64,000 nt of DNA from Patescibacteria group bacterium (GTDB lineage: Bacteria; Patescibacteriota; Microgenomatia; UBA10105; UBA927): positions 27,474 to 91,473 of the forward strand of contig JBBTWJ010000003.1 in NCBI GenBank assembly GCA_038062895.1, written 5' to 3'. The notes under the pieces are model-generated. The model did not search any database and was not told the origin of the DNA. It saw only the letters and a list, made by a program, of their open reading frames with translations. Position numbers and translations under genes: made by a program. Shown piece by piece: positions 1 to 48,795 of the stretch. Positions within the stretch are counted from its first letter, which is position 1; every line of letters starts with the position of its first letter.

Positions 1-181
1 TCCTCGGGTAAAGAAGTAGTACGAATGATTAATTTCGTACTTCTGTAACGCCTCAATCAATAATTTTGTATACATCCCAACTCCCCGGTCCTTATGACCG
101 GAATATAAGGGAGAGACATCGATAGCTATATTCATAGAATGACTAGACAAAGGACAATAAACAATAAACTGTCCTAGCTCT

Positions 182-237
182 GCTTATTGCTTATTGCTTA
201 TTGTTTATTGTTTATTGTTTATTGTTTATTGTTTTTC
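182..237. repeat. Heptanucleotide tandem repeat tract: (GCTTATT)x3 then (GTTTATT)x4-5. Its reverse complement (CAATAAA)x2 lies at 160-176, so the two form an inverted repeat. The tract spans the stop codon of the 219..1811 gene.
   Basis: Direct reading: tgcttattgcttattgcttattgtttattgtttattgtttattgtttattgtttttcg. Upstream ggacaataaacaataaactgtcc is its reverse complement. Confidence 0.8.
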
Positions 238-1811
238 GACTTCCCTAACGAAATTATACCCCATGCAGCTAAACCGACCAAACATACCAATGACAGCAAG
301 TTAACCGCAACCCGCAGCGGGGTATCAAAAAAATTTGTCGTAATCAAATGAGTACCCGGGCTAAACGGGACACTGATCATCCCCTTTTCATCCGGCGTCA
401 CATCTAAGCTCTTGCCATCCACTACGACGTTCCAGCCGGGATAATACGCCACATGGATTCGTAGTTTTCCTCCCGAAGAAGAATCGACCTCCCCGACAAA
501 CTTCGTCATTCCTTCCTCTTTCATCGTGACCGATCCTTCTCCGGAAACTATTTCCATGCGCTTTGCGGGTCTCGCCGGCTGCCACGCCATCCAGGCGGTA
601 GAAAAACCATTGCCCAGCGATGACGTCCCATCCGTAAATTCGCGTCGCGAGAGATAGTATGCATCCGGCCGTGGGGCATAGAGTACCGGCTTGGTATAGG
701 AAAATGAAACAAGGCCCGCACATAATGCGACACTTATAGCAATAAAGGGCCATCGAATCCGGGAAAACATCGCTGCCGCTAAAAACGGTGTCACAACGAA
801 GCCCACGGATAATAACCGCCATGGATATTGAAGATTAGGAAGAAGCGGCACCTTCTCCCAAACCGGAATACTAATCTCCAGCATAAGAAATAATGCAACT
901 CCTGCCGCTCCAATAAAAAGTAACGCAAATCGTTCCTTACGCCAAAACAATACCGGCGAGACGAGAAGAATAAGCATAGGGATAAATCCTATTTGATAGG
1001 ACATTTCATCCAGTGCAAAACCAGGACCGGATAGGCCTGTACCCCATGAGGGAATGAGAAGCTGTGCCAATTCGGGAAAATGATCCTGATAATTGACGGT
1101 GTTCAGTCCCACCACATACCTCCTCTCGACGAGAGCGGGAACCCAAAAATATGAAGATAAGATTATCCCCATCACCACCGCAAGCGCCAATGATCTACCC
1201 GTCATCCACGCATACACGATAATGATGGGAAGAAAAATCATCGCGATGATATTATGGCTGACAATAATTCCAGCAATCGCAAAAGCCAAAAGCGTCTTTT
1301 TTTCATAAACGACACAAGACAAAGCAATAAAGACGAATGCGATGGCCAATACTTCCCCAATTGATCCCCGCACGAATATATCGACGAACCAATATGGCGT
1401 AAACGCGCCGATCACACTTCCGGCTACCGCAGGAATTGTTCCGTATAATCGTTTCAACCAATAATACGAAGCGATAATTGCGATGATATACCCCGCTGCC
1501 ATAGTCCACCGGAACGAATCTGCGAGACTCCAACCAAAAAGATGAAAAAGTGAGCCTATATAATTAGGCAACGGGTAAAAAAATGTAAAAAGAGGCACCC
1601 CGTACCCGCTATTTAAACCCGGCGCCCAACGTGGAAAAAAATTTCCTGCGTCAAGCATCCTGCCGAACTCATAAAAACGGATCAGATGATATTCACCATC
1701 ATGCGTCGGTAAAAACCCCGGCACGAAGAGGTAACGGATGGAAATCAAGCTGATCAGAAGAACGATAATCCATCCCACCCATTCGTATATTGGTATCGTA
1801 TTATGTTTCAT
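219..1811 (-). CDS. Polytopic membrane protein, GT-C-like family with N-terminal HDGEYH...FPRW...GYG.P.F.FYPLPNY motif (YfhO/PTPS-related-like). Paralog of 8181..9827, 38515..40206 and 40203..41732.
   Basis: Long ORF with many predicted TM segments and conserved N-terminal motifs shared by four paralogs in the window. Start is placed at the internal ATG (MKHNTIPIY...), which forms an ATGA overlap with the stop of the upstream gene at 1808. The ORF track extends it to 1877. Confidence 0.5.
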   Translation of the reverse strand: MKHNTIPIYEWVGWIIVLLISLISIRYLFVPGFLPTHDGEYHLIRFYEFGRMLDAGNFFPRWAPGLNSGYGVPLFTFFYPLPNYIGSLFHLFGWSLADSFRWTMAAGYIIAIIASYYWLKRLYGTIPAVAGSVIGAFTPYWFVDIFVRGSIGEVLAIAFVFIALSCVVYEKKTLLAFAIAGIIVSHNIIAMIFLPIIIVYAWMTGRSLALAVVMGIILSSYFWVPALVERRYVVGLNTVNYQDHFPELAQLLIPSWGTGLSGPGFALDEMSYQIGFIPMLILLVSPVLFWRKERFALLFIGAAGVALFLMLEISIPVWEKVPLLPNLQYPWRLLSVGFVVTPFLAAAMFSRIRWPFIAISVALCAGLVSFSYTKPVLYAPRPDAYYLSRREFTDGTSSLGNGFSTAWMAWQPARPAKRMEIVSGEGSVTMKEEGMTKFVGEVDSSSGGKLRIHVAYYPGWNVVVDGKSLDVTPDEKGMISVPFSPGTHLITTNFFDTPLRVAVNLLSLVCLVGLAAWGIISLGKSKNNKQ

Positions 1812-3079
1812 TGCAATAATCGTATTCCGGTATAATTTACCCACAACGTGTACAGAAAAAACGGTACCATCCACCATCGTATTCTTCCGGCAGACCAGAA
1901 ATAAATCAGTATGATCAGAAGAAAAGAGAAATCAAGTGCGTAGCGGTATCCAAACTGCATCCACCCCGTGCTGTAGTAAAGAATGGTCGGCAACGCCGTC
2001 GCCGCAATTCCCAACCAAAGCGCCATAATAACATGCGTATACGTTCGCGTCTTTGACCAAACCCAAGGAAGTGTACAGAAAGCAAGAGCAAGAAGCGGAC
2101 TCAAAACAAAAATTGAATTACCGGCTAAATCGATATCGATGACCGGCCCTTTTTTCCAGAAAAAATGCGGCGATGCCACCGTCATATGCCACAGATTCCT
2201 AGGCGCATGGAAAACGGAAAACATGCCATATCGTTGTCTATTTCGGGCAAGATCCGGATCTTCCTGAATATATCGATATCCCGTCTCGAATGGATTACCA
2301 AATCTGGCAGCGTTGTAAAATAAAAAGAGAGCCGTCGTAAACATGATTGGCAATATTAACCATACAATTTTTCGTCGATCTGATGCATGCTGCTTCGTGT
2401 CATAGAGAAACAAAAAAAACGGAATAATAACAAGAAATACGAGTGTTGGTCGCCCAAGAAGGGTCAAGCTGCAACATGCAACGGAACATATATAGTCTGC
2501 TATCGATCGTTTCTTTTTAAGAATTACCGCTACGCCAAAAACCCCGATAAACGTTGAGACAGCTTGATTTACATACCAGACGCTCCCTACTGTCGAAACG
2601 TAAAACTGCATGGTACCGAACGCATAAAGAAACGTACCGAACAAAGGCATCCAGACTGATTGGCGAGGGAACCAATCGTCCCGCAAGCGCCGAAGTGCCC
2701 ACCACACCGTACCCACTGTGAGGCTTCCGAATAAAAGGCCCGTATAGATGGGAGGAACGAATCTGCCGCCCACAAGAAGCTGTAGCGGTATGTGAACAAG
2801 CGGCGCGAGCAAGCCCCAAGGGATATACCACCGGCCGTTATAGGAAATCAGATCATATGTCATTGGCGGATTGGGAATGTCCAACCGGAACGATCTCACG
2901 GAAAGTGCCATAGCATTGACATAGTCTATAACCCATGGTGGATGAAACGTCCATCCTGTCGCCATGCCAAAGTACAACACAAATACCACTGCGACGATCA
3001 CTGCCATAGGGATCAATTTACTTGCGGCCGCATATTTATTGATCCTTTTAAAGTTCATAGACTGTAATTGTTTCATCAC
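1808..3079 (-). CDS. Polytopic integral membrane protein, probable GT-C-fold glycosyltransferase (unassigned family).
   Basis: 423-aa ORF, hydrophobic throughout, sitting in an operon of GT-C genes. Exact start is ambiguous (M1, M2 or M8). Confidence 0.45.
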   Translation of the reverse strand: MMKQLQSMNFKRINKYAAASKLIPMAVIVAVVFVLYFGMATGWTFHPPWVIDYVNAMALSVRSFRLDIPNPPMTYDLISYNGRWYIPWGLLAPLVHIPLQLLVGGRFVPPIYTGLLFGSLTVGTVWWALRRLRDDWFPRQSVWMPLFGTFLYAFGTMQFYVSTVGSVWYVNQAVSTFIGVFGVAVILKKKRSIADYICSVACCSLTLLGRPTLVFLVIIPFFLFLYDTKQHASDRRKIVWLILPIMFTTALFLFYNAARFGNPFETGYRYIQEDPDLARNRQRYGMFSVFHAPRNLWHMTVASPHFFWKKGPVIDIDLAGNSIFVLSPLLALAFCTLPWVWSKTRTYTHVIMALWLGIAATALPTILYYSTGWMQFGYRYALDFSFLLIILIYFWSAGRIRWWMVPFFLYTLWVNYTGIRLLQ

Positions 3080-4658
3080 TATAAACGACAGGCAATATAG
3101 ACTTTATTTTTTCTTCGTCAACGGTGTATGGGAAATCTTTCCTATCAATTGGGATAGCTATGTAATGAATATTCTGTTTCTTCATTTCGCCAATCGTACT
3201 GCGATGAACATTGCCTAACCACGTATCAATTTGTTTTCTTCTCCCCCAATAATCATATCCCATGACGGAAACGTAATATTCCAAACCAAGATAATTCTTG
3301 CGGCCTGCGATGGCAATAGGATCATAAAGCGCGTGCTTGGAAATAAATATGCTGGATGGATCAGTCTCTATCTCTACCCATCGGGAAAAATTGCTCCGTC
3401 CAACATCGTCAATCATTGTTTGATAATCATTTTTCACGACCATCAGATTAAATAATCCTGAAGCTATTAGGATGACGAAAGCACTTGTCCCAATAATTTT
3501 CCATAGAACCCCGCGCATCCGCCACCAAGCCACCAATAAGTTTGCTATGAAAGGGAGCCATAAAACCGTCGCATAATTAATAAGTGAATGATTATGTTCG
3601 ATGCGGTAGCTGATCTGCAATGTATTGGCGAGGATAAATAGTATACCCGCTCCGATCATCAGGCGCCGGCCGATCGCATTCGTTACCACCCAGGATAAGG
3701 GCATCAATACTACGAGAAGACCAAGATTGTAAATCCAAAACCAACCCCAGGAATCCATAGAAAACGGCCGCGGCGCCAGATACCCGGGATTCCAAAGTTG
3801 AGGTACTCCAACTGCGGATCTCATTGAAAAAATCCCTATGAGATGCGGTGCAGATGCGAGGACTGCCGCCCCCGCAAACAAGAGTAACGCTCTTGTTCTT
3901 TTTCCAAAAAGAAGGATGATTACTGAAATTCCGGTCGCCACGGCGATCACGAGGTGGACTCTGGTTGCAAATCCGATCACAATACCCACGAATATCCATC
4001 GCATATTCGATGTCCGCTTGTTTTCCTGAAGCCATCTAACGGTCATCCAGATGACCAATACCGCAATAGCCATACCGACGACAAGGTGACGTTGGTTAAG
4101 ATACGGCGCAAGCGTCGCATAGATAGTTATGACCGATCCATCAAACGGCCCCTGGTGGAGATAATCCGGATATCGCCAAAATCCGGTAAAAAATGAAAAA
4201 TCCTTTGGCGCCAGTCTTAAAATCTCGACAAATGAGAAATTGCTCGGTAAAAGAAAAAAAGCGATAGACAGCAAACCCGCTATTCGTGATCCATGAGATA
4301 CTAATCCCGTCAACCGATACAAACCATACAGCAGTACGGTCAGCGCAACAGCACTTACTCCATTGAGCGCATAGTCAATTCGTATCCCCTGCCCAACCAT
4401 CTGCCCTACGAGCCAATCAATTGCATAGTGATATACCAAAGGCTTTCCCGGAAAAAATGGTGACTGGGCAGGGACGTTTTTACCCCATGCAAATGACCGG
4501 ATGAGGCTAATATGAAGCCCGAAATCTCCTACTTCGTGACGGGCTACACGGAATTGGGACGCACCGGTATCGTAACCGAAACTCTTCGCCATAAGCCACC
4601 AGGAAAAGATCAAAAGCGCCGAAACGAGGATGATGTCAATGAAGGCGTGTTTTACCAT
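3048..4658 (-). CDS. Polytopic membrane protein, GT-C/GT39-like (HEVGDFGLH...SPFFPGKPLVYHY N-terminal motif).
   Basis: 536-aa ORF with a hydrophobic profile and context. The family call is based on recalled resemblance, not a search. Confidence 0.4.
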   Translation of the reverse strand: MVKHAFIDIILVSALLIFSWWLMAKSFGYDTGASQFRVARHEVGDFGLHISLIRSFAWGKNVPAQSPFFPGKPLVYHYAIDWLVGQMVGQGIRIDYALNGVSAVALTVLLYGLYRLTGLVSHGSRIAGLLSIAFFLLPSNFSFVEILRLAPKDFSFFTGFWRYPDYLHQGPFDGSVITIYATLAPYLNQRHLVVGMAIAVLVIWMTVRWLQENKRTSNMRWIFVGIVIGFATRVHLVIAVATGISVIILLFGKRTRALLLFAGAAVLASAPHLIGIFSMRSAVGVPQLWNPGYLAPRPFSMDSWGWFWIYNLGLLVVLMPLSWVVTNAIGRRLMIGAGILFILANTLQISYRIEHNHSLINYATVLWLPFIANLLVAWWRMRGVLWKIIGTSAFVILIASGLFNLMVVKNDYQTMIDDVGRSNFSRWVEIETDPSSIFISKHALYDPIAIAGRKNYLGLEYYVSVMGYDYWGRRKQIDTWLGNVHRSTIGEMKKQNIHYIAIPIDRKDFPYTVDEEKIKSILPVVYSDETITVYEL

Positions 4659-5748
4659 ACATAAGGGTACTGACTAAAGCCGGCACAAACGTCACTATTT
4701 TTTTAATCAACGGGGTCATGCCGCCCCAGGAACGGGTGTAAAAAAACGGCACAATCCGCAAACTTAGCCCCAATGAAAACCCGTATGATGCCGCGTAGAG
4801 CACGGTGGGCTTATCCACAAGAGCCAGAAACGTAAGCGGCCAAATGAAGTACCACGCATACATTTCTTCCCGAAAGGGCGATAAAAAGAAAATCATATAC
4901 ATAGCGATACTTGCCCAATACCACACCCGGGACGGCGGAAGTGGTCTCTTATTCCACACTGAATACAGAAACCACAATAATACGGGTACCAGAAAAAGCG
5001 TTGCTCCTTTAATGAAGATGGAACCAATGAGTAATACTATTCCCATCACAAACTTGCGGCGCTTTATACATAAAAACGATGCGAGCGCCAGAGTCATCAT
5101 GACCACGTCATTATGTCCGTCAACGAGTGTCGAGAGGACCACTAACGGATTGAGCGCAAAAAACGCAAGGGCCCACGGCTTCTTCTGTGAAGCTATCCAG
5201 ATGAGGTAACAAAGGACGAGATACCAAAATACGATAAAAATTTTGAATGTAAATAATGTAAGCAATAGATTTCCGAACCCCATGAAATGCGGTATACCGG
5301 TCAATACAATCCATACCGGACCATAGAGCGCTACCTTATTTGCCGCGTGCAGAAACGAAAAACTCGGCTCGCCGGACAGATCGATAGGCATGATGATGTA
5401 TGGGTTCTCCCGATAGAAAAATGTGACTTTGGCTGTCGCAATGTAATTAAAAATATCGTTTGACAGAGCCGGATAGGACCACATGAGGATAACGACGGTG
5501 GCAACAATCGCCAACCAAACATGTTTTGAAGTCAACAATCCCTTTTTGATGCTATGTAATATCCAAACATACCATCCAAAGAGAGCTACAACACTTGCGG
5601 TATACCATGCAGTCGGATAGAGAGTCTTGAAATAAATAATAGGCTGAAGTGAAACGATGTGGGGCAAAGACGAATTTGCATCGACAAATCCCCAGGAAAT
5701 AATGGTAAAAACGATCAAAACAAGCCCATAAAACAAATTTAATGCCAT
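4636..5748 (-). CDS. Polytopic membrane protein, DUF2029/GT87-like. Paralog of 43287..44435 (shared SNDIFNY / NPY motifs).
   Basis: ORF track 4636..5871. Start refined to the internal ATG (MALNLFYGLVLIVF...) to avoid a 133-nt overlap with the upstream gene. Shares a conserved motif block with the paralog at 43.3 kb. Confidence 0.45.
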   Translation of the reverse strand: MALNLFYGLVLIVFTIISWGFVDANSSLPHIVSLQPIIYFKTLYPTAWYTASVVALFGWYVWILHSIKKGLLTSKHVWLAIVATVVILMWSYPALSNDIFNYIATAKVTFFYRENPYIIMPIDLSGEPSFSFLHAANKVALYGPVWIVLTGIPHFMGFGNLLLTLFTFKIFIVFWYLVLCYLIWIASQKKPWALAFFALNPLVVLSTLVDGHNDVVMMTLALASFLCIKRRKFVMGIVLLIGSIFIKGATLFLVPVLLWFLYSVWNKRPLPPSRVWYWASIAMYMIFFLSPFREEMYAWYFIWPLTFLALVDKPTVLYAASYGFSLGLSLRIVPFFYTRSWGGMTPLIKKIVTFVPALVSTLMYGKTRLH

Positions 5749-6872
5749 ATTTTTCGTAATCCCCACCGGAGAATCCAAACCCCTACGATATATGAAACAG
5801 GAAACAACGGCAGAAAAAATCGGGATGAAACCACGCCGAGAGAGAGAAAGGCGCTCATAACCATAAACCATACTATCAGCAGCGAAACCGGATCCTTCAT
5901 CGAAATTTTACGGGACGCAAAAAGCCCAATTGCTATCCACCCCAATACCGTGCTTACCGGCCATGTCCATCGCCAGTCGTCGGCTGAAAGGATACGCATA
6001 TCACCCCACCACGCCTGCCATTGATTAAAAAAAAGAAAAGGCCATACGGAAAAAGGAAATATAAGCTTGCTTTGCTGATACAAAAAAATCCACTTCTGAA
6101 ATCCAATAAATTCGGCAATCGTATATCCGCTCATAAAAGTTCTCGTATAGGAAGCCACAAAAATAATACCGGAAATACTCAACCATAGACTTAACCGCAC
6201 TATCTGCTTCCATTGACGCTGCAAACCAAGAAACGCCATAAACGTAGCGACCAGTAAAATCGCAGGAACCACGGTCTTCGTCGCCATAACCAGTCCAATC
6301 ATAACTGCGGTTACAAAAAATGACCTTCGAGACCTCTCCCATAAAAATGCCGCAATAGCAAATAATAACCACGGAAGCTGAATGATATCTAAAAGCGGGG
6401 CAATACGAATTTGACCCAAAAAAAGAGGCTCTGTCGTAAGGACCGCCACAGGAATAAGCGCCGCTACCTTATCTTTAAGCGTCATTGAGCCGATGATCCA
6501 GACCGCCACTAGCGTGAGTATAGCGCTTGGCAACACGATAAACTTGTCATTTTTCATGACAAGAATAAAGAGACCGATCATATATTTACCAAGCGGTGTG
6601 TGCTCAGAATTAATAAGGATGGGATCGACACCCCGGATATAGGCTCCTGCTGCGTAACTAAAAACCGTCTCATCGGGAATAATCCCTGCGTTTTCTTTCC
6701 TGCGGTACTGCGACCCGTCATACGCTTCCCGAAACCCCTTATACATATCATCGGTGTAATACCCAGATGTATACCCCACCCATAAAGGACTGATCGTCTG
6801 TATCAGCGTTAGAACCGTAATTCCCAATAACATCAACGCGACGAGTGTTCGCAATGGAATAAATCTTTTCAT
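5739..6872 (-). CDS. GT39/PMT-like phospholipid-carrier-dependent glycosyltransferase (membrane).
   Basis: 377-aa polytopic ORF. General resemblance to the ArnT/PMT family. Sits in an operon of related genes. Confidence 0.4.
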   Translation of the reverse strand: MKRFIPLRTLVALMLLGITVLTLIQTISPLWVGYTSGYYTDDMYKGFREAYDGSQYRRKENAGIIPDETVFSYAAGAYIRGVDPILINSEHTPLGKYMIGLFILVMKNDKFIVLPSAILTLVAVWIIGSMTLKDKVAALIPVAVLTTEPLFLGQIRIAPLLDIIQLPWLLFAIAAFLWERSRRSFFVTAVMIGLVMATKTVVPAILLVATFMAFLGLQRQWKQIVRLSLWLSISGIIFVASYTRTFMSGYTIAEFIGFQKWIFLYQQSKLIFPFSVWPFLFFNQWQAWWGDMRILSADDWRWTWPVSTVLGWIAIGLFASRKISMKDPVSLLIVWFMVMSAFLSLGVVSSRFFLPLFPVSYIVGVWILRWGLRKIWH

Positions 6873-7417
6873 GGAAGTTTAGGTAACGCGTCACTGCGGA
6901 TACGCTCTGCTTCAGAGAGCGCTGCATGTAAGCCAAGCACTTGAGGAGCTTTTTTCTCCGGAGTCCAAGTAAACTCTTCAGGTACATCCTTTTTGATCTT
7001 AACAATCAACCGCTTGTGCTCTTCCAGTGCCGCCATAAACTCCTGTTTATATTTCTCTATATTCTTTCCTTCATCCCTAGCCTGTCTCAAGGAAACGGAA
7101 ACGCGCGGAAGAGCAATATTGGATCGCTCAAGGGCGTCAAGCGCCAATAGGTATTGGTTATACTCGAAGAGTATTTTGGCTTCCACTAGCGCTTTATCTG
7201 ACTGTTCCAACTCATACCGGTATGAAGCCAAGTTCCCCCAATACCAATATTTCTTCGCTTCATCAATTACCCGGGAGACGCGATACAGTTTATTCCCGGG
7301 CATGTAGGAGGGATAGGGCAAGACATAAGCGGCGGTGACTTTCTGCAGGGGTAGATAGCAGATAACAGATAACAGAAAGCAGAAAGAAAGCAATAATAAT
7401 TTTCTTTTATTATTCAT
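6869..7417 (-). CDS. Secreted or periplasmic protein with N-terminal signal peptide, unknown function.
   Basis: N-terminal KRKLLLLSFCFLLSVICYLPLQ hydrophobic segment followed by a charged, helical body. The signal peptide is encoded by a heptamer repeat tract. Confidence 0.45.
   Translation of the reverse strand: MNNKRKLLLLSFCFLLSVICYLPLQKVTAAYVLPYPSYMPGNKLYRVSRVIDEAKKYWYWGNLASYRYELEQSDKALVEAKILFEYNQYLLALDALERSNIALPRVSVSLRQARDEGKNIEKYKQEFMAALEEHKRLIVKIKKDVPEEFTWTPEKKAPQVLGLHAALSEAERIRSDALPKLP
7353..7390. repeat. Heptanucleotide repeat tract (AGATAAC/AGAAAGC-type, x5) encoding the signal peptide LLSVICYL of the 6869..7417 product.
   Basis: Direct reading: agatagcagataacagataacagaaagcagaaagaaagc. 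Confidence 0.7.
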
Positions 7418-9827: not shown

Positions 9828-9832
9828 AAAGA

Positions 9833-16292: not shown

Positions 16293-16316
16293 TGCAAGGG
16301 AAACAAGTGCTATAAT
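16285..16316 (+). promoter_or_regulatory. Candidate sigma70-type promoter with extended -10 (TGcTATAAT) upstream of the plus-strand GT39 gene.
   Basis: gtgcTATAATctct is 32 nt upstream of ATG 16348. The -35 is weak (atcaat, at a 20-nt spacing). Confidence 0.35.
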
Positions 16317-16347
16317 CTCTCTGAGAAACCCGTAATTTACAACGAGT

Positions 16348-19731: not shown

Positions 19732-19747
19732 AGAAATTTCTCCTATG

Positions 19748-23756: not shown

Positions 23757-23757
23757 A

Positions 23758-33125: not shown

Positions 33126-33126
33126 G

Positions 33127-33175
33127 GTTACTTTGTAATTTAGTTACTTTGTTACTTTGTTAATTTGTTACTTTG
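33127..33175. repeat. Octanucleotide tandem repeat (TTACTTTG/TAATTTAG)x6 spanning the stop codon of the GT2 gene 33152..33919 and the short intergenic region.
   Basis: Direct reading: gttactttgtaatttagttactttgttactttgttaatttgttactttg. Confidence 0.75.
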
Positions 33176-34836: not shown

Positions 34837-34837
34837 A

Positions 34838-41732: not shown

Positions 41733-43270
41733 GGATATTTTAATGGCTTAGATGTAGAAGAATTCGTTGCGGTAAATGTTTCTATTTTATACAGCCGGAG
41801 CGTACGGTCTTTTCTCAAACCCTTCGGATAGGAAGCCACGAGCGTGAGTGGCCAACCCAGCGGAACATCTTTAGGGTCATTGGCGACTAAATAGGTGGGG
41901 TAACGTTTAGCCGACTCAACAACCTCCGGGGGTGGAGTTTCAGTGAGCGGCCATACCCCATGAATCTCAATATTTGGTTTATCCACAAGCCAAATTTCAA
42001 GTCCATATGGGAGCAGACCGAATGTTCCTTCTGTATACACAACCACCTTTCCCTTCGCGGACTCTTGAAGAATAAAGTCACGGACTTCGCTCACCCCCCA
42101 TCCCGCCGGCCAATCATTGATGTACTGACCTCGATCTGCTTGAGGAATCAATGCATGGGTCGGAGAAGTCAACAGAAGGTAATCCGTCCAGATGCTTGGC
42201 AATATAAGTACACCCAAAAGTATCAATCCAAACATAGTTTTCTTCCATCGCAAGACAAGGGAATCTATGGTAAGACAAGCGAGAACCAAAAGTGGCATCG
42301 TCATGAAAAGAATAAATCGTGGGTAAAGTATCCTCCCAAAGAGCGCGAGCGCCACAAAGGGTGCTAACCACCAAACATAGAGCAATAGCTTTTCCCTCGT
42401 ATGTTTCCAAAACGTGAATGCCGGCAATAATACAGCAATCCAAACCGGCCATGTGAGGTAATGAATAAGCCAATCAAACATGCCGCGGATGTTGCCTACA
42501 AAAAACTCCATCGGGTGCTTGATCCATTCTCCAATTGGATAAATAAATACCGCATCTTTTTGTGCCACTATATGAAATAGCGGCGAAAGCCGTAAAACGC
42601 TATACATCGCCTGCGAAATAACAGCCGCCACGCCCACGTAGATCATCCATCTGCCTAAACGCTTGAAGCGATCCGCTTGGCGCATATCAAAAAGGATGAG
42701 AGACGCCGGTATCATATAAAGACTCAAAAATCCTGACGATTTATTGAGCATCCCAAGTCCGAGCGTCATCCCCAAGATAAGCGCGGTGTCCAGCCGAATC
42801 CGCCGTACAAGATGAACGGTAAAGTAGAGACTCCAAATTGATAGCATCGCCGTGAGTGAATCATAAAGAGCCATCCGGTCATACACCAGCGCAAACGGGC
42901 TGATAAGATAGAGGATACTTGCAAAGAGGCCGATCCTGGTATTTCTAAATACTTCCCGGCCCAAAAAAAACATTCCTATAAGGCCGCCAAATCCTGCAAA
43001 AACAGAAACAAGCCTCCCCGCAAAAATAGGGTCCGCAATCAAGCGCATCAACACCATCGCGATCCATGTATAGAGTGGTTGTTTGCCGTCAACCAGAGAG
43101 ATGAAGCGCCATGCAGCGTCCCGGCTGCCAATCTGCGACCAGCGGATGTAGATGGCCTCATCAGTAAATATAGGGAGGCTGGTGAGGTTATAAACCCGTG
43201 TCAGGAAAAAAATTCCAAAGACCAACGCTCCTCCCCCGATCCACCACCAAAATGACCGTTTTGAAGCCAT
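41729..43270 (-). CDS. GT39/ArnT/PMT-like glycosyltransferase.
   Basis: LPIFTDEAIYIRW motif and polytopic profile. Confidence 0.55.
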   Translation of the reverse strand: MASKRSFWWWIGGGALVFGIFFLTRVYNLTSLPIFTDEAIYIRWSQIGSRDAAWRFISLVDGKQPLYTWIAMVLMRLIADPIFAGRLVSVFAGFGGLIGMFFLGREVFRNTRIGLFASILYLISPFALVYDRMALYDSLTAMLSIWSLYFTVHLVRRIRLDTALILGMTLGLGMLNKSSGFLSLYMIPASLILFDMRQADRFKRLGRWMIYVGVAAVISQAMYSVLRLSPLFHIVAQKDAVFIYPIGEWIKHPMEFFVGNIRGMFDWLIHYLTWPVWIAVLLPAFTFWKHTREKLLLYVWWLAPFVALALFGRILYPRFILFMTMPLLVLACLTIDSLVLRWKKTMFGLILLGVLILPSIWTDYLLLTSPTHALIPQADRGQYINDWPAGWGVSEVRDFILQESAKGKVVVYTEGTFGLLPYGLEIWLVDKPNIEIHGVWPLTETPPPEVVESAKRYPTYLVANDPKDVPLGWPLTLVASYPKGLRKDRTLRLYKIETFTATNSSTSKPLKYP

Positions 43271-43286
43271 ATGTGAACATTATATC

Positions 43287-44435
43287 CTACTTCTTCCATA
43301 CATACACCTTACCCAAGCCTAACAAAAGCAAAGGAATGCCCACGGGCACGAGAGTCACTAACCATTTGAGAATCGGAACCGGCGCATTCCAGTTGCCATA
43401 ATAGAGGTAGGGGGCATAACGAAGCAGAAGCGCAAACGAATACCAACCGGCAAACACGGTGAGCCATTTCTTGGAAGGAAGCACTGCAACAAAAGGCATG
43501 AGCCATATCCAGTACCACGGCAGCGGCTCGCGCTTCGTTAGAACGAAAAGAAATCCAACACCCATTACGACCAAAGACCACACTCTCCAATTTATGGTTT
43601 TGCGATGTCCAACAAAAAAAATGGGAAGAAGGGTCACCGTCATGAGCTTCACGGCCACAGACAAGCACAACATCAGCCACGATGCAACGCGCTTTTTTTC
43701 AAGAAATAAAACAATAGCCCACACCGAAAAAGCCATCATGGCAATATCGTTATGTGCACTTACCAGGCTTTCAATAATGACCAAAGGGTTGAGCGCAAAG
43801 ACAGCGGTTCCAAAAACCGCAAGCTTAGGCTCTACCCGCTCCAGTATCCTTTCTACTCCCTTTACTGCGCAAATATAAAAGAAAGCAACCAATATCTTGA
43901 GATTCCATACGATCAAAAGAAATTTCCCAAAACCCAATAGGTAGGCCGGGAGAGTGAAAACAATCCAAATAGGCGTATATGCGCTTGGCAGATGGGTCCA
44001 ACGCATGACGGAAATCAACGGATCAATACCGGCAAATTGCAATGGAATAACCTCGTATGGGTTTTTGTGATATACAAGCACAGTTTTTGCCGTAAATACA
44101 TAGTTAAACAGGTCATAGGAGAATGCTGGGTAGGAAAATACCAATAAAACAGTTACAATACATATAATTTTCCAAAGATTTTTGGCCGGCAATAAACCTT
44201 TGTCTGTCACCCGAAGCGCTAATGCGTAAAGGATGAACCAAAAACCGATAATTCCCACAAATAACGAGGTCGAGAAAGGGCGTTGATAATACCCTATATG
44301 TTGAAAGGTCTCCTGAATTGTCTGAAGTAATCCTGCAGAAGACAACGTGAGGCTTAAGTCTACCTGGGTATAGGAATAAAAAAACAGAACAATTGAGGCT
44401 ATGACATAACCGAACAGTAAAATTGAAAATTTCAT
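43287..44435 (-). CDS. DUF2029/GT87-like polytopic membrane protein (paralog of 4636..5748).
   Basis: SYDLFNYVFTAKTVLVYHKNPYE block shared with the 4.6-kb paralog. Start refined to MKFSILLFGYV (track 44540), giving an ATGA overlap with the GtrB-like gene. Confidence 0.45.
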   Translation of the reverse strand: MKFSILLFGYVIASIVLFFYSYTQVDLSLTLSSAGLLQTIQETFQHIGYYQRPFSTSLFVGIIGFWFILYALALRVTDKGLLPAKNLWKIICIVTVLLVFSYPAFSYDLFNYVFTAKTVLVYHKNPYEVIPLQFAGIDPLISVMRWTHLPSAYTPIWIVFTLPAYLLGFGKFLLIVWNLKILVAFFYICAVKGVERILERVEPKLAVFGTAVFALNPLVIIESLVSAHNDIAMMAFSVWAIVLFLEKKRVASWLMLCLSVAVKLMTVTLLPIFFVGHRKTINWRVWSLVVMGVGFLFVLTKREPLPWYWIWLMPFVAVLPSKKWLTVFAGWYSFALLLRYAPYLYYGNWNAPVPILKWLVTLVPVGIPLLLLGLGKVYVWKK

Positions 44436-45184
44436 TGATATATTCCTCTCCATGCATTCATACGAATTTTTAGGATGTCCATAAGCCCCTGCCATGAATC
44501 TTTGATCGGACTGACGCGCCGGGTTTCCACATAATGCCACTCGACTGAAACCTCTTTTATATGAAAACCGAGCTGTTTTGCAACAAACAACATTTCTATA
44601 TCAAATCCGGCGGTGACCATAGAACCCTGGACGACGTGATTGTTTCCATAGAGTTTGAGCCGGCCAAAAATTTTCCGTACCACAGCATGACGAAACGCTT
44701 TAAATCCACATTGCGTGTCCGTAATGCCATGAAGTCCCAAAACAATTGACCGAAGCCACATAAATCCCCTTGCCATGGCAATCCGCGTAAGCGGGGCTCC
44801 CTCGCGCCTTTTACTCCTCGAGCCAATTACCACATCAAAACCTTTATCAAACCAGGGAAATAATTTTTCCACTTCGCCAATAGGAGTAGCCTGATCCAAA
44901 TCAGTAAAAAGCACAATATCTCCCCGGGCTTCTAAACTACCGGTAACAACCGTCGCCGCCTTACCCTGGTGCGGATTATGCATGACACGAAACCCGGAAG
45001 TTGCATGCGCATATTCATCCAAAAGTTTAGATGTTTCATCAGTAGAGCCATCATCGACAAGGATAACTTCCCAGCTATACTTGCGGCTTTCCATGAAGCG
45101 GGACACCTTATCAAGAGCTCCTAAACGAATATTGGTTTCCTCGTTATACGCAGGAATTACTATAGACAAAAAGGGACTTGCCAT
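44432..45184 (-). CDS. GT2 polyprenyl-phosphate sugar synthase (GtrB/Dpm1-like).
   Basis: LSIVIPAYNEETNI...ILVDDGSTDET...DLDQATP...DTQCGFKAF. Confidence 0.7.
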   Translation of the reverse strand: MASPFLSIVIPAYNEETNIRLGALDKVSRFMESRKYSWEVILVDDGSTDETSKLLDEYAHATSGFRVMHNPHQGKAATVVTGSLEARGDIVLFTDLDQATPIGEVEKLFPWFDKGFDVVIGSRSKRREGAPLTRIAMARGFMWLRSIVLGLHGITDTQCGFKAFRHAVVRKIFGRLKLYGNNHVVQGSMVTAGFDIEMLFVAKQLGFHIKEVSVEWHYVETRRVSPIKDSWQGLMDILKIRMNAWRGIYQ

Positions 45185-45186
45185 GT

Positions 45187-46761
45187 TTATAAGTGTACCA
45201 GTTTGTGAATCGTCACGAACGACGTCTGCCAGCTACCGGAGATCGTGGCAGTCCCGAAGCCTGCAATTTCCCAAAGAGGGTGACCGAGCGGCTTACAATC
45301 AGGAATCTCGCAAATAACAATGAGCTGGTCAGTCACGGTTTTTCTCTGCGGATCTTTAAATTCAGCTTCTATGGTAACCGGTGGACTTCCCCAAATTTCA
45401 AAAAAATAACGGTACACATGATCGGAGTTACCCTGCGTAACCAGGGCGAAATTAAACGGCCTTCCCTCCGTTTTATCGATTGCTTCTTTGGCAATGGCCC
45501 TGGCTTGTGCGAGTTGATTGTTCGGCGCATACTGAAACGGCTGACCCTGCCAATTCCACCATAGTAAAAAAACGGTTATGCCCATCGAAACTGCCGTCCC
45601 GATAAAACGAATTTGCTTCAGGCGATACAAAATGAGCCCTGTCACCAAAAATGGCAACGCGAACCAAATTCCGAAATAGTAATCATAAATCGCTCGTTTA
45701 TAAAACCCAAATAATACGGTAACTGCAATGCCCCAAAGTAACAGGAGTAATGACGACTGTCTCCACCTTGAATTATGACCCCTCCAGAGAGCTCCCCAGA
45801 CTAACAGAATCAGGCCCGTCGCGATGATTCCGACTATTCCCCAATGCCAAACTCCCTGCTGCCAACCCGGAATATCCGACCAGATTTCCGGCTGCGGAAA
45901 ACGCAATACGAGTCGTCCGACGAGTCGATATAATACTTCTTTGGCTATGTTTGAGTATTTCTCGCCGTCCAGTCCTGTATCTTTTCCCGCAAGGACAAAT
46001 CGCATGATCGACTGCGTATTGGGAAACCCATGGCGCAACTCAAACAGGAGAAACGGTGCATATCCTATCACAAACCCTATAACAGAAACCGCCAAACTTC
46101 GAATCTTCATCCCCACTTTACCCTGAACAATAAGCCAAAGGGCAGCAACCGGAAAAAGGAACAAAAAAAGATAATGCAGCTGAAGACCAATACCCATAGA
46201 TACTCCAACCCAAAAGACATTTCGCAGCCTCCCGTCGTTGGTGTTCTTCCATAAAAGATATATGGTCAAAAGAGAAAAAAACGGGACGATGTTGGGATTC
46301 CACGATGACCTTGAGTATGCAATCACGACGGGCGACAACGCATACAGCGCGCTCGCTGTAATTCCTACCCACGGATGAAACATATCCCGACCCGATCGAT
46401 AGACGAGGTATACGGTTGCCACGCCGAATAAGGCAACCATCACTGCCGGACCTGTGGGATCAAGTCTCCATGCCCAAAGAAAAGGCATCATGAAATAATA
46501 GTAGATAGGTCCCAAAAAAAATCCGCCCACGGAGGCCGTCGGCCCCAATAAGGTCCATTTATGGTCAACAATCATCTGCTTCACCACTAATACATCGCGC
46601 CCTTCATCTCCTAAAAACGTCATATAGCCGGAAATGTTGTGGAGACGTAGATAAGCAGCTACGAAAAGAATAACTACTATCAGCCATTCAGACCAAGGAA
46701 CATTCTGAAACTTTTGACTTATTTTTTCCATATCACTTTTGAATACATGGTGTAATTCCAA
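45187..46761 (-). CDS. GT39/PMT-like glycosyltransferase.
   Basis: FLGDEGRDVLVVKQM motif and polytopic profile. Confidence 0.55.
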   Translation of the reverse strand: MELHHVFKSDMEKISQKFQNVPWSEWLIVVILFVAAYLRLHNISGYMTFLGDEGRDVLVVKQMIVDHKWTLLGPTASVGGFFLGPIYYYFMMPFLWAWRLDPTGPAVMVALFGVATVYLVYRSGRDMFHPWVGITASALYALSPVVIAYSRSSWNPNIVPFFSLLTIYLLWKNTNDGRLRNVFWVGVSMGIGLQLHYLFLFLFPVAALWLIVQGKVGMKIRSLAVSVIGFVIGYAPFLLFELRHGFPNTQSIMRFVLAGKDTGLDGEKYSNIAKEVLYRLVGRLVLRFPQPEIWSDIPGWQQGVWHWGIVGIIATGLILLVWGALWRGHNSRWRQSSLLLLLWGIAVTVLFGFYKRAIYDYYFGIWFALPFLVTGLILYRLKQIRFIGTAVSMGITVFLLWWNWQGQPFQYAPNNQLAQARAIAKEAIDKTEGRPFNFALVTQGNSDHVYRYFFEIWGSPPVTIEAEFKDPQRKTVTDQLIVICEIPDCKPLGHPLWEIAGFGTATISGSWQTSFVTIHKLVHL

Positions 46762-47828
46762 AGGAGACCGATTCCTACACCTAAGATATAAAACCAGCGA
46801 TAAACAGAAACCCCAAAAACCATGGATCCTATCCAGACGGTTCCTGACTGTATGAGTACGGCGCCCAGAGAGGTTGTGTTAAATTGCAGAAATTTTGCGA
46901 TCGCATCAAATCCACGGACTTTACGTGTCCCGAATGTCCAGGAATTATTCAGAATAAAATTAGAAATGATGGCAAGTTCTGCTCCTAAACCGCTCCCAAT
47001 AGCAGGATGGAATCCATTGTGAACGAAAACCTCTAATATAAATGTATTAATGATAAAACCGAGACTACCGACTACGAGAAATTTACCAAACGATCCCGTG
47101 ACTATTTGCTTCACGCGTTGCTCAATGACATACTGCAGCACGTCACGAATATATTGAGATGGTGCTATCTTAGAATGTCCAAACTTTCTATCCGTGAAGC
47201 GAATCGGAACCTCTATAATTTTTGCGCCACGCAGTATCGATTTGTGAAGATATGCGATTTGAAATACATATCCCTGGTATTTGGATAATTCCGTACGGCT
47301 ATATCGAGCAAATTTTTCTGTATATGCCCGATACCCGCCCGTCCAATCATGGACGTTGGTAAATCCCAAACCAAACCGTACAATTCCATTACCGACAATA
47401 CTAAACAATTTCCGGTGTATGCCCCAATTTTCAGGAATTGATCCACCATCTATGTAACGGCTACCAACGGCAAAATCCCCACCTTTATCCAACGCAGTCA
47501 TAAAGAGCGGAAGTGATGTAGGATCATGGGATAAATCTGCATCCATCTGAACGATAATCTCTGCATACAAAACATCAAGTGCGTAAGCGATCCCATAAAG
47601 AAGTGCGCTGCCTAATCCTTCCTTTTCTTTTGTCAGAAGGATCACGTTAGGATGTCTTCTTCTATACTGATGAACCACTTCTGACGTGCCATCCGGAGAT
47701 TTATCATCAACAACAAGAATCGTGAGCTTATGCCCGGAAACGTTGCGCCATGCGTCAAAAATGCCATCCAAGAGGGTTTTGATATTTTCCCGCTCGTTAT
47801 ACGTCGGGAGTATGACGACGGTGTTCAT
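46719..47828 (-). CDS. Polyprenol-phosphate sugar synthase (Dpm1/Ppm1-like GT2) fused to a C-terminal GtrA-like membrane domain.
   Basis: VVILPTYNERENI...VVDDKSPDGT...QMDADLSHDP. The C-terminal ~110 aa carries GtrA-like TM helices. Start refined to MNTVV (track 47954). Confidence 0.65.
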   Translation of the reverse strand: MNTVVILPTYNERENIKTLLDGIFDAWRNVSGHKLTILVVDDKSPDGTSEVVHQYRRRHPNVILLTKEKEGLGSALLYGIAYALDVLYAEIIVQMDADLSHDPTSLPLFMTALDKGGDFAVGSRYIDGGSIPENWGIHRKLFSIVGNGIVRFGLGFTNVHDWTGGYRAYTEKFARYSRTELSKYQGYVFQIAYLHKSILRGAKIIEVPIRFTDRKFGHSKIAPSQYIRDVLQYVIEQRVKQIVTGSFGKFLVVGSLGFIINTFILEVFVHNGFHPAIGSGLGAELAIISNFILNNSWTFGTRKVRGFDAIAKFLQFNTTSLGAVLIQSGTVWIGSMVFGVSVYRWFYILGVGIGLLWNYTMYSKVIWKK

Positions 47829-47835
47829 GGGGTTA

Positions 47836-48795
47836 TTATACCCGTTCACGCCAGTAGTTGAGAAGATCCTCCATAGTTTTCTCAAAGGATATTTCCGGCT
47901 TCCAACCGGTCTTCTGGACAAATTTAGTATTATCACCGATAAGAACCGGCACATCGGATGGCCGCATGCGGGAAGGGTCTTCTTTCATTTCCACCTTCAC
48001 TTGAGAATAAGAAAGTAAAAGCTTGAGCATATCCGCCACCTTCACGGCTTTACCCGTGCAGATGTTATACACCTCACCGGCATCACATTTCTCTACCGCC
48101 ATTAAATACCCACGCACCATATCACGCACATCCGTCCAGTCACGCTGCGAATCCAAATTGCCCACCTGAATGATCGGCTCTTGTTTGCCTTTTTCAATCA
48201 TCGCGACTTGCTTAGCAAAATTACTCGTCACAAATGTCTCTCCCCGCCTGGGACCGGTATGATTGAATCCGCGCGTCCTGATAATCTTTAATCCGTAGGA
48301 CCGGTGATACTGATACCCTAAATAATCCATGGCAACTTTCGATACCGCATACGGCGAGAGAGGCCGAAGCGGATTGGTTTCCTTAATCGGAATCTCATCG
48401 GGGAGCACAAGTCCATATTCCTCCGACGAACAAGCGATTTGTATCACAGGGTTAATCCCCACCTGACGGACAGCCTCAAATATATTGGCTGAACCGACGA
48501 TATTGACTTCAAGCGTCACAGAGGGCGACACCCATGAGGTGGGCACAAATGATTGTGCTGCCAGATGGAAAATATAATCAGGCTTAATGCGGGCGATTGT
48601 CGAATAAAGACTATGTGAATCTAAAAGATCGGCGTCTTCAAGATGAATTTTGGATTTAATTAACTCGATATGGTCTGTTTTACTTCTTGGCCGGCACAAT
48701 CCGTAGACTTCGTATCCTTGTTGTTGCAACAACAACTCTGCTAAATGACTGCCGGCAAATCCGGCTATTCCCGTAATAAGTGCTTTTTTTGTCAT
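47836..48795 (-). CDS. NAD-dependent sugar-nucleotide epimerase/dehydratase family protein, Rmd-like (GDP-4-keto-6-deoxy-D-mannose reductase type).
   Basis: ALITGIAGFAGSHLAELLL Rossmann motif and YxxxK (PYAVSK). Start refined to MTKKALITG, preceded by GGAGG. The Rmd-versus-other-reductase call is uncertain. Confidence 0.6.
   Translation of the reverse strand: MTKKALITGIAGFAGSHLAELLLQQQGYEVYGLCRPRSKTDHIELIKSKIHLEDADLLDSHSLYSTIARIKPDYIFHLAAQSFVPTSWVSPSVTLEVNIVGSANIFEAVRQVGINPVIQIACSSEEYGLVLPDEIPIKETNPLRPLSPYAVSKVAMDYLGYQYHRSYGLKIIRTRGFNHTGPRRGETFVTSNFAKQVAMIEKGKQEPIIQVGNLDSQRDWTDVRDMVRGYLMAVEKCDAGEVYNICTGKAVKVADMLKLLLSYSQVKVEMKEDPSRMRPSDVPVLIGDNTKFVQKTGWKPEISFEKTMEDLLNYWRERV

Follow-up and report, generated by a model that had tools for sequence, protein, structure and literature searches.

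What does a bacterium with a presumably small genome do with 47.7 kb of back-to-back glycan-assembly genes, most of them for membrane glycosyltransferases? This question is raised by a stretch of 64,000 nucleotides (hereafter, the window; positions 27,474 to 91,473 of contig JBBTWJ010000003.1, assembly GCA_038062895.1) from a member of the Patescibacteria, or Candidate Phyla Radiation (CPR), bacteria that are thought to live attached to other cells, whose surface chemistry is almost unstudied and whose genomes are about 1 megabase in size (presumably also in this case). The window opens with 35 such genes (g01-g35), 22 of which are predicted to encode glycosyltransferases of the GT-C type. Our results suggest that these genes form the central part of a conserved supercluster for glycan assembly, at least 58 kb long, which quite probably represents a greatly expanded, multi-component transmembrane glycosylation system. 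The component families are all of known kinds; what appears to be undescribed is the number and density of GT-C genes in one conserved locus, their occurrence in CPR, and two GT-C families without a family model, and the literature searched yielded no account of clusters like this one from Gottesmanbacteria, Microgenomates or CPR.

The open reading frame (ORF) map places g01-g35 at window positions 219-47954, all on the minus strand except g12 and g13, with 4-base ATGA-type overlaps at many junctions (6869/6872, 7414/7417, 8181/8184, 11488/11491, 13221/13224, 27494/27497, 29776/29779, 40203/40206 and 41729/41732), that is, the mostly coupled, one-strand arrangement that a first-pass annotation of this DNA had described. 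In addition to the 22 GT-C or GT-C-like genes, which make up 77% of the 47.7 kb (4.6 genes per 10 kb), the set includes three glycosyltransferase family 2 (GT2) genes of the polyprenyl-phosphate-sugar-synthase type, five other GT2 genes, one GT4 gene, one Wzx-type flippase, one methyltransferase, and two small anchored proteins. The dense cluster was thus correctly recognized in the first-pass annotation, whereas its count of about 17 GT-Cs in the first 48 kb was too low: Pfam, profile and fold evidence together give 22. These 22 predicted GT-C genes, with bit scores for the Pfam models named, are the following:

g01, 219-1877, minus strand: 'HD..H' family (PTPS_related/YfhO-like), 552 aa, about 11 transmembrane (TM) segments
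g02, 1808-3079, minus strand: probable GT-C (LA_3751/LA_3752-like), 423 aa, about 8 TM
g03, 3048-4658, minus strand: g18-type family (no Pfam model), 536 aa
g04, 4636-5871, minus strand: MptA/B-like, about 370-411 aa
g05, 5739-6872, minus strand: short PMT-like, 377 aa
g08, 8181-9827, minus strand: 'HD..H' family; PTPS_related 38.4 bits, YfhO 28.9 bits, both above cutoff
g09, 9833-11491, minus strand: PMT_2/ArnT-like; PMT_2 38.7 bits
g10, 11488-13224, minus strand: PMT_2/ArnT-like; PMT_2 30.0 bits, 35% identity to g09
g11, 13221-14510, minus strand: divergent PMT_2-like, 429 aa; PMT_2 21 bits, below cutoff
g12, 14511-16292, plus strand: DUF6311/PTPS_related/YfhO-like group; no Pfam match itself
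g13, 16348-18045, plus strand: PMT_2/PMT; PMT_2 45.7 bits, PMT 25.0 bits (cutoff 22.7), both above cutoff
g14, 18031-19854, minus strand: PMT type; PMT 32.8 bits, above cutoff
g15, 19748-21367, minus strand: Microgenomates-restricted family without a Pfam model, FGCFDDC motif
g16, 21315-23756, minus strand: YfhO family, 813 aa; YfhO 86.9 bits
g18, 24608-26614, minus strand: Microgenomates-restricted family without a Pfam model, about 660 aa, about 16 TM
g20, 27494-29779, minus strand: YfhO family; YfhO 64.5 bits
g22, 30822-33125, minus strand: YfhO family; YfhO 87.8 bits
g29, 38515-40206, minus strand: 'HD..H' family; PTPS_related 31.7 bits
g30, 40203-41732, minus strand: 'HD..H' family; paralog of g01, g08 and g29 (E 3e-61 to 7e-38)
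g31, 41729-43270, minus strand: PMT_2; 52.6 bits
g32, 43287-44540, minus strand: MptA/B-like; TIGR03459 E 2.6e-7, 31% identity to g04 (E 6e-44)
g34, 45187-46761, minus strand: PMT_2; 49.5 bits

Window ORFs of at least 100 aa were scanned, and a match is called above or below cutoff with respect to the Pfam gathering cutoffs or the NCBIfam equivalog cutoffs. Eleven GT-Cs exceed a Pfam cutoff (g08, g09, g10, g13, g14, g16, g20, g22, g29, g31 and g34). With g15 and g18, for which structure models with a GT-C fold were obtained, 13 of the 22 are covered by Pfam thresholds or fold; eight more (g01, g03, g04, g05, g11, g12, g30 and g32) are tied to GT-C through homologs, profiles or paralogy, and g02 moderately so. 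A hydropathy scan gave 5-16 TM peaks in each of the 22 candidates. That is, every large membrane protein of the cluster except the Wzx-type flippase is linked to GT-C by Pfam, profile-profile comparison or predicted fold, and the family searches that had been proposed as a check placed these ORFs among glycosyltransferases rather than among transporters or outside any family.

For the proteins with weaker or no Pfam matches, the evidence is as follows. The g01 protein is paralogous to g08, g29 and g30 (E 3e-73 to 2e-46), and its profile matches the g12 family (97.1%) and YfhO (96.9%), with a YfhO score of 27.8 bits, slightly below the gathering cutoff. Among the 189 homologs of g12, many carry DUF6311, PTPS_related, DUF2079 or YfhO domains (PF19830, PF10131, PF09852 and PF09586). 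The g04 protein has a precomputed match to the MptA_B_family (PF26314) and a weak one to mycobacterial MptA (TIGR03459, E 1.5e-6), is a paralog of g32, and has a conserved 'SxDxFNY' motif. Of the 534 homologs of g05, 44 were aligned, 16 of which match PMT_2 and eight PMT, and the family profile matches yeast Pmt2, the DE...HPPLGK region included. The divergent g11 joins g14, g09, g13 and g10 in an iterated local hidden Markov model search. As to g02, it matches the LA_3751/LA_3752 putative glycosyltransferase family below cutoff (NF047440, E 1.2e-10) and the in-window PMT_2 family by hhalign (81%, E 1e-5), and has syntenic orthologs in more than 30 contigs. Ten membrane or anchored proteins lack a Pfam match of their own at E ≤ 0.01, and relaxing the search to E ≤ 10 for these ten gave noise alone; nothing useful came from PDB searches with the single sequences of g12, g15 and g02 or from searches with a g18-family profile.

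The two families without a Pfam model were placed by structure. The g18 family was found only in Gottesmanbacteria, Levybacteria and Daviesbacteria, none of its members having a Pfam domain in this region, and the 83 homologs of g15, likewise without a Pfam domain, are in Gottesmanbacteria and Roizmanbacteria. The AlphaFold2 models of g18 (predicted local distance difference test, pLDDT, 91.3; predicted TM-score, pTM, 0.92) and g15 (pLDDT 93) both show a helical bundle followed by a C-terminal mixed domain, consistent with the GT-C fold. The top 22 Foldseek PDB matches of g18 are all GT-Cs (STT3, AglB, PglB, DPY19, AftA, ArnT and AftD), and the top matches of g15 are GT-Cs exclusively. In profile comparisons, the g18 family matches the g12 family (hhalign 97.6%) and the profile of g03 and its syntenic orthologs (99.4%, E 7e-22, 475 columns), g03 also having a weak TMEM260-like match. 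No relationship between the g15 and g12 families was found by hhalign, and hence g15 is assigned to GT-C by fold only. We also considered an oligosaccharyltransferase (OST) role for g18, given that STT3, AglB and PglB top its Foldseek list; TM-scores are about 0.4, however, and the family consensus lacks WWDxG, so we take the match to reflect general similarity among GT-Cs.

An acidic residue in the loop after the first TM segment (TM1) is kept in every GT-C family, the Asp being lost in g11 alone. It is represented by the HD of the 'HD..H' family, the DE of PMT_2 (conserved in g09, g10, g13, g14, g31 and g34), the D of YfhO, the SxD of the MptA-like pair, D133 in the g18 family, the invariant D31 and near-invariant D32 in g15, and the invariant D43 and D67 in g12 and g05, respectively. 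In the g15 family, the invariant FGCFDDC stands directly after TM1.

All-against-all BLASTP showed the paralogs within the window to be 25-36% identical and grouped them as g01/g08/g29/g30, g09/g10/g13/g14 with the more distant g31 and g34, g16/g20/g22, and g04/g32; the PMT_2/ArnT-like group has six members plus the divergent g11 and the short, PMT-like g05. These groups agree with the paralog families of the first-pass annotation (six GT39/ArnT-like, four 'HD..H', here identified as PTPS_related/YfhO-like, and three YfhO, as well as the two GT2 trios below), save that its three DUF2029-like proteins are replaced by two MptA/B-like ones. Altogether, the sequences point to 22 GT-C-type enzymes of at least six sequence families, two of them without a Pfam model, that diverged anciently. 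In neighbour-joining trees, each window paralog groups with its own orthologs from elsewhere and not with its in-window paralogs; hence, the duplications are ancient and each copy has been retained, which favors non-redundant roles and disfavors the recent in-locus amplification for which a phylogeny had been suggested as a test.

How far does the cluster extend, and is it peculiar to this genome? A contig that differs from the window at a single position in 2125 bases extends leftward beyond g01 and carries the cluster at least 10 kb further, so the left boundary at position 219, as first annotated, is an artefact of the window edge. The flanking genes are:

flank 1: GT4
flank 2: 9-TM protein with a PIG-V-like 'FDGAQYTSIARDGY...FFPIYPL' motif
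flank 3: DPM-like GT2
flank 4: 12-TM protein of the MOP flippase superfamily
flank 5: second DPM-like GT2
flank 6: GT4
flank 7: GT2 with two C-terminal TM helices
flank 8: short-chain dehydrogenase/reductase (SDR), DegT-type aminotransferase, and another SDR (amino-sugar genes)

The 12-TM protein is taken as a second Wzx-type flippase because five of its seven orthologs match Polysacc_synt; it sits between two synthase-type GT2s, and these three genes adjoin that of the 9-TM protein, probably an additional GT-C, for which the PIG-V-like motif provides weak support. The supercluster thus spans at least 58 kb, or about 64 kb with the rml genes described below, and about 45 glycan-assembly and sugar-supply genes form one block.

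The source organism is a member of Candidatus Gottesmanbacteria (Microgenomates, CPR/Patescibacteria) living in Hainich groundwater: the closest genome loci carry the name of this group, and assemblies from that groundwater contain contigs identical to the window (ENA ERZ1292628 and ERZ1292619, as well as several Logan runs). The order g26-g24-g23-g22-g21-g20-g19-(g18)-g17-g16 is common to other Gottesmanbacteria genomes at 45-72% identity. A metagenome scan seeded with g02 gave 36 loci, and every long one among them carries the block g10/g09-g08-g07-g06-(g05)-g04-g03-g02-g01 followed by the flank genes, at 35-77% identity; syntenic blocks were found in at least 12 long metagenome contigs. GT-C density in the related loci is 2.4-4.3 per 10 kb. 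Therefore, while the organism does belong to the small-genome CPR, the density of this cluster, whose complexity had been noted as unusual for such a genome, is a conserved feature of the lineage and not a single-genome oddity. Three contigs labelled 'uncultured Gammaproteobacteria bacterium' (L003, L004 and L006; CAZLDC010000029.1, CAYTZO010000003.1 and CAZEVT010000003.1) also carry syntenic clusters of the Gottesmanbacteria type (41-65% identity to g16, 41-77% across ORFs), and these labels are probably wrong.

GC content is uniform (0.42-0.48) and GC skew negative throughout the cluster and the flanking housekeeping genes. A horizontally acquired island was considered and is unlikely, as GC content is flat across the cluster and its housekeeping neighbours, which indicates native DNA, and there is no tRNA gene in the window.

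The remaining genes of g01-g35 are the following:

g28, 37797-38537, minus strand: soluble polyprenyl-phosphate-sugar-synthase-type GT2; Glycos_transf_2 70.9 bits
g33, 44432-45184, minus strand: soluble polyprenyl-phosphate-sugar-synthase-type GT2; Glycos_transf_2 99.5 bits
g35, 46719-47954, minus strand: predicted polyprenyl-phosphate hexose synthase, GT2 with a fused GtrA-like 4-TM domain (GtrA_DPMS_TM)
g27, 36347-37855, minus strand: Wzx-type (MOP) flippase, about 13 TM; Polysacc_synt_3 159.5 bits, Polysacc_synt 78.1 bits
g07, 7414-8184, minus strand: GT2 (GT-A), paralog of g23 and g26; Glycos_transf_2 74.6 bits
g23, 33152-33919, minus strand: GT2, paralog of g07 and g26; Glycos_transf_2 54.4 bits
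g26, 35457-36359, minus strand: GT2, paralog of g07 and g23; Glycos_transf_2 69.8 bits
g19, 26595-27497, minus strand: GT2 (GT-A); Glycos_transf_2 78.7 bits
g24, 33904-34884, minus strand: GT2, rhamnosyltransferase-like; Glycos_transf_2 69.8 bits, TIGR01556 E 1e-18 (below cutoff)
g21, 29776-30891, minus strand: GT4 (GT-B); Glycos_transf_1 77.2 bits
g17, 23758-24678, minus strand: SAM-dependent methyltransferase with an N-terminal zinc ribbon; Methyltransf_23 90.4 bits
g06, 6869-7417, minus strand: small signal-anchored helical protein, 182 aa; weak DUF5667 match
g25, 34838-35473, minus strand: N-terminally anchored protein, 211 aa

The inventory of three polyprenyl-phosphate sugar synthases, six GT-A/GT-B enzymes (g07, g19, g23, g24 and g26 of GT2, g21 of GT4), a flippase and a methyltransferase given by the first-pass annotation holds. 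Residues 37-409 of g35 align full-length with the dolichol-phosphate mannose synthase (DPMS) of Pyrococcus furiosus (5MLZ, E 3e-40). By BLASTP, g28, g33 and g35 form a DPM1/GtrB-like trio; the closest solved structures to g33 are ArnC, DPMS and GtrB, and the best NCBIfam matches, all below cutoff, are PgfS, Dol-P-hexose transferase, AglJ and PpgS for g28 and include PgfS, Dol-P-hexose transferase and PpgS for g33. Synthase-type and GT-C genes are adjacent in g35-g34 and g33-g32/g31, and g29 (GT-C), g28 (synthase type) and g27 (Wzx type) stand together. The trio g07, g23 and g26, with weak AglJ or Dol-P-hexose transferase matches, may be either soluble cytoplasmic glycosyltransferases or donor synthases; an exact-protein look-up of g23 returned no record. 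The methyltransferase g17 has orthologs at the same position in L003 and L004. All long related contigs have the small protein g06 at the same place, flanked by the orthologs of g07 and g05/g04; this conserved synteny suggests a possible role for g06 as an accessory subunit in the GT-C machinery. The membership of g25 in the system is uncertain, as g25 is absent from the syntenic L004. A PglC-like small phosphoglycosyltransferase was considered for g25 and is unsupported (no Pfam match at E ≤ 10, no NCBIfam match at E ≤ 0.001).

Sugar-nucleotide genes follow the cluster directly:

g36, 47836-48867, minus strand: NDP-sugar 4,6-dehydratase-like SDR; GDP_Man_Dehyd 291.7 bits
g37, 48879-50210, minus strand: UDP-glucose/GDP-mannose dehydrogenase (ugd-like), with all three UDPG_MGDP_dh domains
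g38-g41, 50344-53548, minus strand: rmlD, rmlB, rmlC and rmlA (dTDP-L-rhamnose pathway), by RmlD_sub_bind, GDP_Man_Dehyd/Epimerase, dTDP_sugar_isom and NTP_transferase

The ugd and rml genes are as first annotated and g36 is an SDR, but the specificity implied by its earlier rmd-like label is uncertain: its best NCBIfam match is gmd (GDP-mannose 4,6-dehydratase), and the 204 bits are far under the 415-bit cutoff. Together with the amino-sugar genes of the flank, these genes are predicted to supply dTDP-rhamnose, UDP-uronic acid, and 6-deoxy or amino sugars.

How might these parts work together? In the transmembrane glycosylation scheme of Rismondo et al. (PMC8035078), a GT-A makes a C55-P-sugar, a GtrA- or Wzx-type flippase carries it across the membrane, and a GT-C transfers the sugar outside; a variant has a soluble GT-A and a Wzx-type flippase (PMC8035078). 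The part types found here, with the Wzx-type proteins and the GtrA-like domain as candidate flippases, are the same as those of GtrA/GtrB/GtrC, CsbB/GtcA/YfhO and GacI/GacJ/GacK/GacL (PMC8035078; PMC5836110; PMC11127046), with the soluble variant matched by g29-g28-g27 and by the GT-C-like/GT2/MOP/GT2 genes of the flank, and with the fused GtrA domain of g35 also fitting the scheme. By analogy, we infer that the GT-Cs use a lipid-phosphate-linked sugar donor on the extracytoplasmic face. Nucleotide sugars would be made in the cytoplasm; the DPM1/GtrB/PpgS-like GT2s would charge polyprenyl phosphate with monosaccharides; the resulting lipid-P-sugars would reach the outer face of the membrane by means of the adjacent MOP flippases and the GtrA-like domain; and the GT-Cs would transfer the sugars singly to an extracytoplasmic acceptor, each GT-C presumably forming one linkage at one acceptor position. 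The soluble GT2 and GT4 enzymes would probably build a primer or core at the cytoplasmic face, which the methyltransferase would help make or modify. The elaborate extracytoplasmic glycosylation system proposed by the first-pass annotation is thus supported by the GT-C and synthase families, with an adjusted role for the Wzx-type proteins. That is, because both MOP flippases adjoin synthase-type GT2s and the 74 kb of the window plus the 10-kb flank yielded neither a priming phosphoglycosyltransferase nor Wzy nor a chain-length regulator, these proteins may move lipid-P-monosaccharides rather than O-units, as proposed for GacK.

The difference from the known multi-component systems is one of scale and of acceptor: in these, one GT-A serves one, rarely two, GT-Cs, which decorate a polymer made elsewhere, whereas here 22-23 GT-Cs of at least six families share one conserved locus with 3-5 synthases, and no gene for a polymer to be decorated was identified at the locus. 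A ratio of this kind is that of the lipomannan/lipoarabinomannan (LM/LAM) and arabinogalactan pathways or of the lumenal ALG steps, and hence points to building rather than decorating a polymer. We therefore favor an assembly line by which one surface glycoconjugate, or a small number of them, is built or extensively elaborated. Candidate products are a protein O-glycan, a lipoglycan and a wall polysaccharide, and candidate acceptors are proteins, a wall polymer synthesized elsewhere and a glycolipid-anchored lipoglycan.

In mycobacteria and corynebacteria, LM/LAM and arabinogalactan are made by PimE, MptA/B/C, EmbA-C and AftA-D with Ppm1 and PpgS/Rv3779, that is, many GT-Cs extend one glycoconjugate on the outside from few polyprenyl-P-sugar donors, and LM/LAM is primed on a lipid in the cytoplasm by GT4 enzymes without the need for a phosphoglycosyltransferase. 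The likeness to this system includes the MptA/B-family matches of g04 and g32, the weak PpgS similarity of g28 and g33, and the resemblance in fold of g15 and g18 to AftA, AftB, AftD, PimE and Emb. However, in mycobacteria the genes are dispersed over a 4-Mb genome, in contrast to the single block in this CPR genome, the sequences share only marginal identity with the mycobacterial enzymes, and no genes of the decaprenyl-P-arabinose (DPA) pathway or for a phosphatidylinositol anchor were identified at this locus. The logic is also shared with the lipid-linked oligosaccharide pathway of eukaryotes and archaea, with ALG3/9/12/6/8/10, DPM1/ALG5 and OST (cytoplasmic GT-A/GT-B enzymes, flipping, and a lumenal GT-C series on Dol-P-Man or Dol-P-Glc); g35 is a clear homolog of archaeal DPMS, and the remaining likeness is in fold only (g15 to ALG3, ALG9, ALG12 and ALG6; g15 and g18 to STT3/AglB). 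In contrast to OST, the WWDxG motif is missing from the g18 family consensus and nothing points to en-bloc transfer. Finally, g13 and g14 pass the cutoff of the GT39 PMTs (actinobacterial Pmt, fungal PMT1-6), yeast Pmt2 is matched by the g05 profile, and PgfS of streptococcal Pgf O-glycosylation (PMC11092751) is the best NCBIfam match of g28 and g33; unlike the GT39 PMTs, the proteins here have no MIR domains. The DPMS homolog g35 and a Pro/Thr-rich surface protein (g46, described below) make a circumstantial case for mannose transfer from polyprenyl-P-Man to Ser/Thr.

Several points weigh against the multi-component glycosylation reading. The donors, the sugars and the acceptor are all inferred, as are the steps that go beyond family, fold and synteny. 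The tie of g02 to GT-C, a probable one, is moderate and the weakest of all the assignments, and g11 lacks the D of the DE motif, keeping only the Glu there. The g28 and g33 proteins have no TM segments and score far below the equivalog cutoffs of the named polyprenyl-P-sugar synthases, and no stand-alone GtrA was found in the window or the 10-kb flank. Neither was any priming transferase, Wzy, ligase or LCP gene in the same DNA, so that the start and the end of the pathway are missing; the primer may, for this reason, be on a glycolipid and not on undecaprenyl diphosphate (Und-PP). In addition, the 22 GT-Cs may serve many products and not one.

This last point leads to the alternative that survives best, namely that the locus is a depot of independent GT-A/flippase/GT-C modules, each with a different acceptor (e.g., PMT-like O-glycosylation of Ser/Thr/Pro-rich surface proteins next to YfhO-like decoration of a wall polymer). 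We regard this as a real possibility, albeit on the unlikely side. Characterised PMT, YfhO and PMT_2 enzymes do have distinct acceptors (PMC8035078; PMC5836110; PMC11092751), both g13 and g14 score above the PMT cutoff, the Pro/Thr-rich g46 is encoded about 9 kb away, and synthase genes are interspersed among the GT-C genes. However, gene order is tightly kept over large distances at low identity, which is more typical of one pathway, the genes are translationally coupled throughout, and a mere 3-5 donor synthases serve 22-23 GT-Cs.

Alternatively, the locus might encode a classical Wzx/Wzy surface polysaccharide, with the six soluble glycosyltransferases building a repeat unit on Und-PP, g27 flipping it, and the GT-Cs decorating the finished polymer or one of them polymerising or ligating it. 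The strong Wzx-type match of g27, the fit of six GT-A/GT-B enzymes and a methyltransferase to such a locus, the adjacent rmlABCD, ugd and dehydratase genes (as in O-antigen and capsular polysaccharide loci), and the OSTs, users of PP-linked oligosaccharides, among the structural neighbours of g18 and g15 are all in line with this possibility. Yet, ORFs of at least 100 aa in the 64-kb window and the 10-kb left flank gave no match to a priming phosphoglycosyltransferase of the Bac_transf or WecA/MraY type, nor to Wzy_C/O-antigen ligase, Wzz or the LCP family, both MOP flippases directly adjoin synthase-type GT2s, and a set of 22 decorating enzymes for one repeat unit would be without precedent. 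In principle, the Wzy or ligase role could be played by a divergent GT-C-like protein, and this alternative is compatible with, not exclusive of, transmembrane glycosylation; the missing enzymes nevertheless weaken it, and we consider it rather doubtful.

Short tandem repeats are also present in the cluster. Six period-7 arrays of 4-7 copies lie in the first 13 kb (184-234, 7353-7383, 7865-7900, 9150-9177, 11903-11930 and 12781-12812): one lies in the intergenic region immediately downstream of g01, with the next GT4 gene about 50 nt further on, and the remaining five are inside g06, g07, g08 and g10, the g10 array falling in an insertion relative to the g10 paralogs. A period-8 array of 6.4 copies fills the gap between g23 and g22 (33127-33177). 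Repeats in or beside g01, g06, g07, g08 and g10 and between g23 and g22 could mean a phase-variable, antigenic-variation island in which they switch glycosyltransferases and vary the surface. This is very improbable: the copies are few and imperfect, the coding arrays are currently in frame, orthologs and synteny are kept across genomes, and in seven loci, drawn from independent assemblies of several samples, positions 19315-25756 and 1-14184 of the window recur unchanged, repeats included, apart from one mismatch at a contig end. Phase variation is thus unsupported, given the identity of independent assemblies. Finally, we give practically no credence to the large membrane proteins being transporters or other non-glycosyltransferases, as might be suggested by the ten proteins without a Pfam match of their own and by several matches under the gathering cutoffs, since the unmatched membrane proteins are tied to GT-C by homolog annotation, profile-profile comparison or fold, and transporters appear only far down the structure lists of g15 and g18, with probability <0.15.

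Hence, we favor the expanded transmembrane glycosylation system, whose narrower form, that the operon-like block of at least 58 kb is a single extracytoplasmic assembly line for a large, complex envelope glycoconjugate of a class undescribed for CPR, is a tentative proposal that we think somewhat unlikely to hold in full. If it does hold, the glycoconjugate would plausibly be the main interface with hosts or phages, and, to our knowledge, no organism would have been reported with a denser cluster of GT-C genes. In either form, the conservation of 22 distinct GT-Cs, each across related lineages, argues for strong selection for a complex surface glycoconjugate; that is, the organism probably builds an unusually elaborate surface sugar coat. 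The locus is thus a conserved target for glycomics, cryo-electron tomography and lectin work on groundwater CPR, offers two GT-C families without a family model (g15-type and g18/g03-type) for which confident structure models are available, and provides a natural test of whether Wzx-type flippases beside DPM1-like GT2s move lipid-P-monosaccharides. It is also a possible independent case of serial GT-C polymer assembly outside Actinobacteria and the eukaryotic endoplasmic reticulum.

With respect to transcription and gene starts, a promoter scan of the window was at chance level, and a terminator-like hairpin lies 3' of rmlD (50341-50324). At the divergent g11/g12 junction (14488-14540), the longest ORFs abut with zero spacing and two 10/12 sigma-70-like matches on opposite strands face outward, which suggests that the true start codons are probably further in; the recorded gene call for g12 is 586 aa, compared with 593 aa for the longest ORF.

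Downstream of the cluster, the candidate O-glycosylation acceptor is g46 (56699-57604, minus strand), which has a signal peptide, a globular domain of about 150 aa, a Pro/Thr-rich linker of about 90 residues (up to 80% Ser/Thr/Pro per 40-residue window), a C-terminal TM anchor and a charged tail; this composition makes the acceptor role plausible. The RmlC-like cupin (52341-52814, minus strand, 157 aa, soluble) scores 30.8 bits against Polysacc_synt_C, above the 28.7-bit cutoff, a match that is probably spurious because the model represents a membrane-protein domain. The gene at 54910-55842 (minus strand) joins a Sua5/YrdC domain to a short segment that resembles TsaD/TsaB (only positions 26-87 of the 264 in the profile are matched) and adjoins TsaE (55861-56367, minus strand); the two look like a compact or rearranged gene set for t6A synthesis. 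Finally, FtsE, FtsX and a PcsB-like protein (coiled coil plus M23 peptidase) at 59322-62115 (minus strand) form a cell-division hydrolase module like that of Gram-positive cocci, near which a VanZ-like protein (56289-56702) and a CAP-domain membrane protein (53816-54829) are also encoded.

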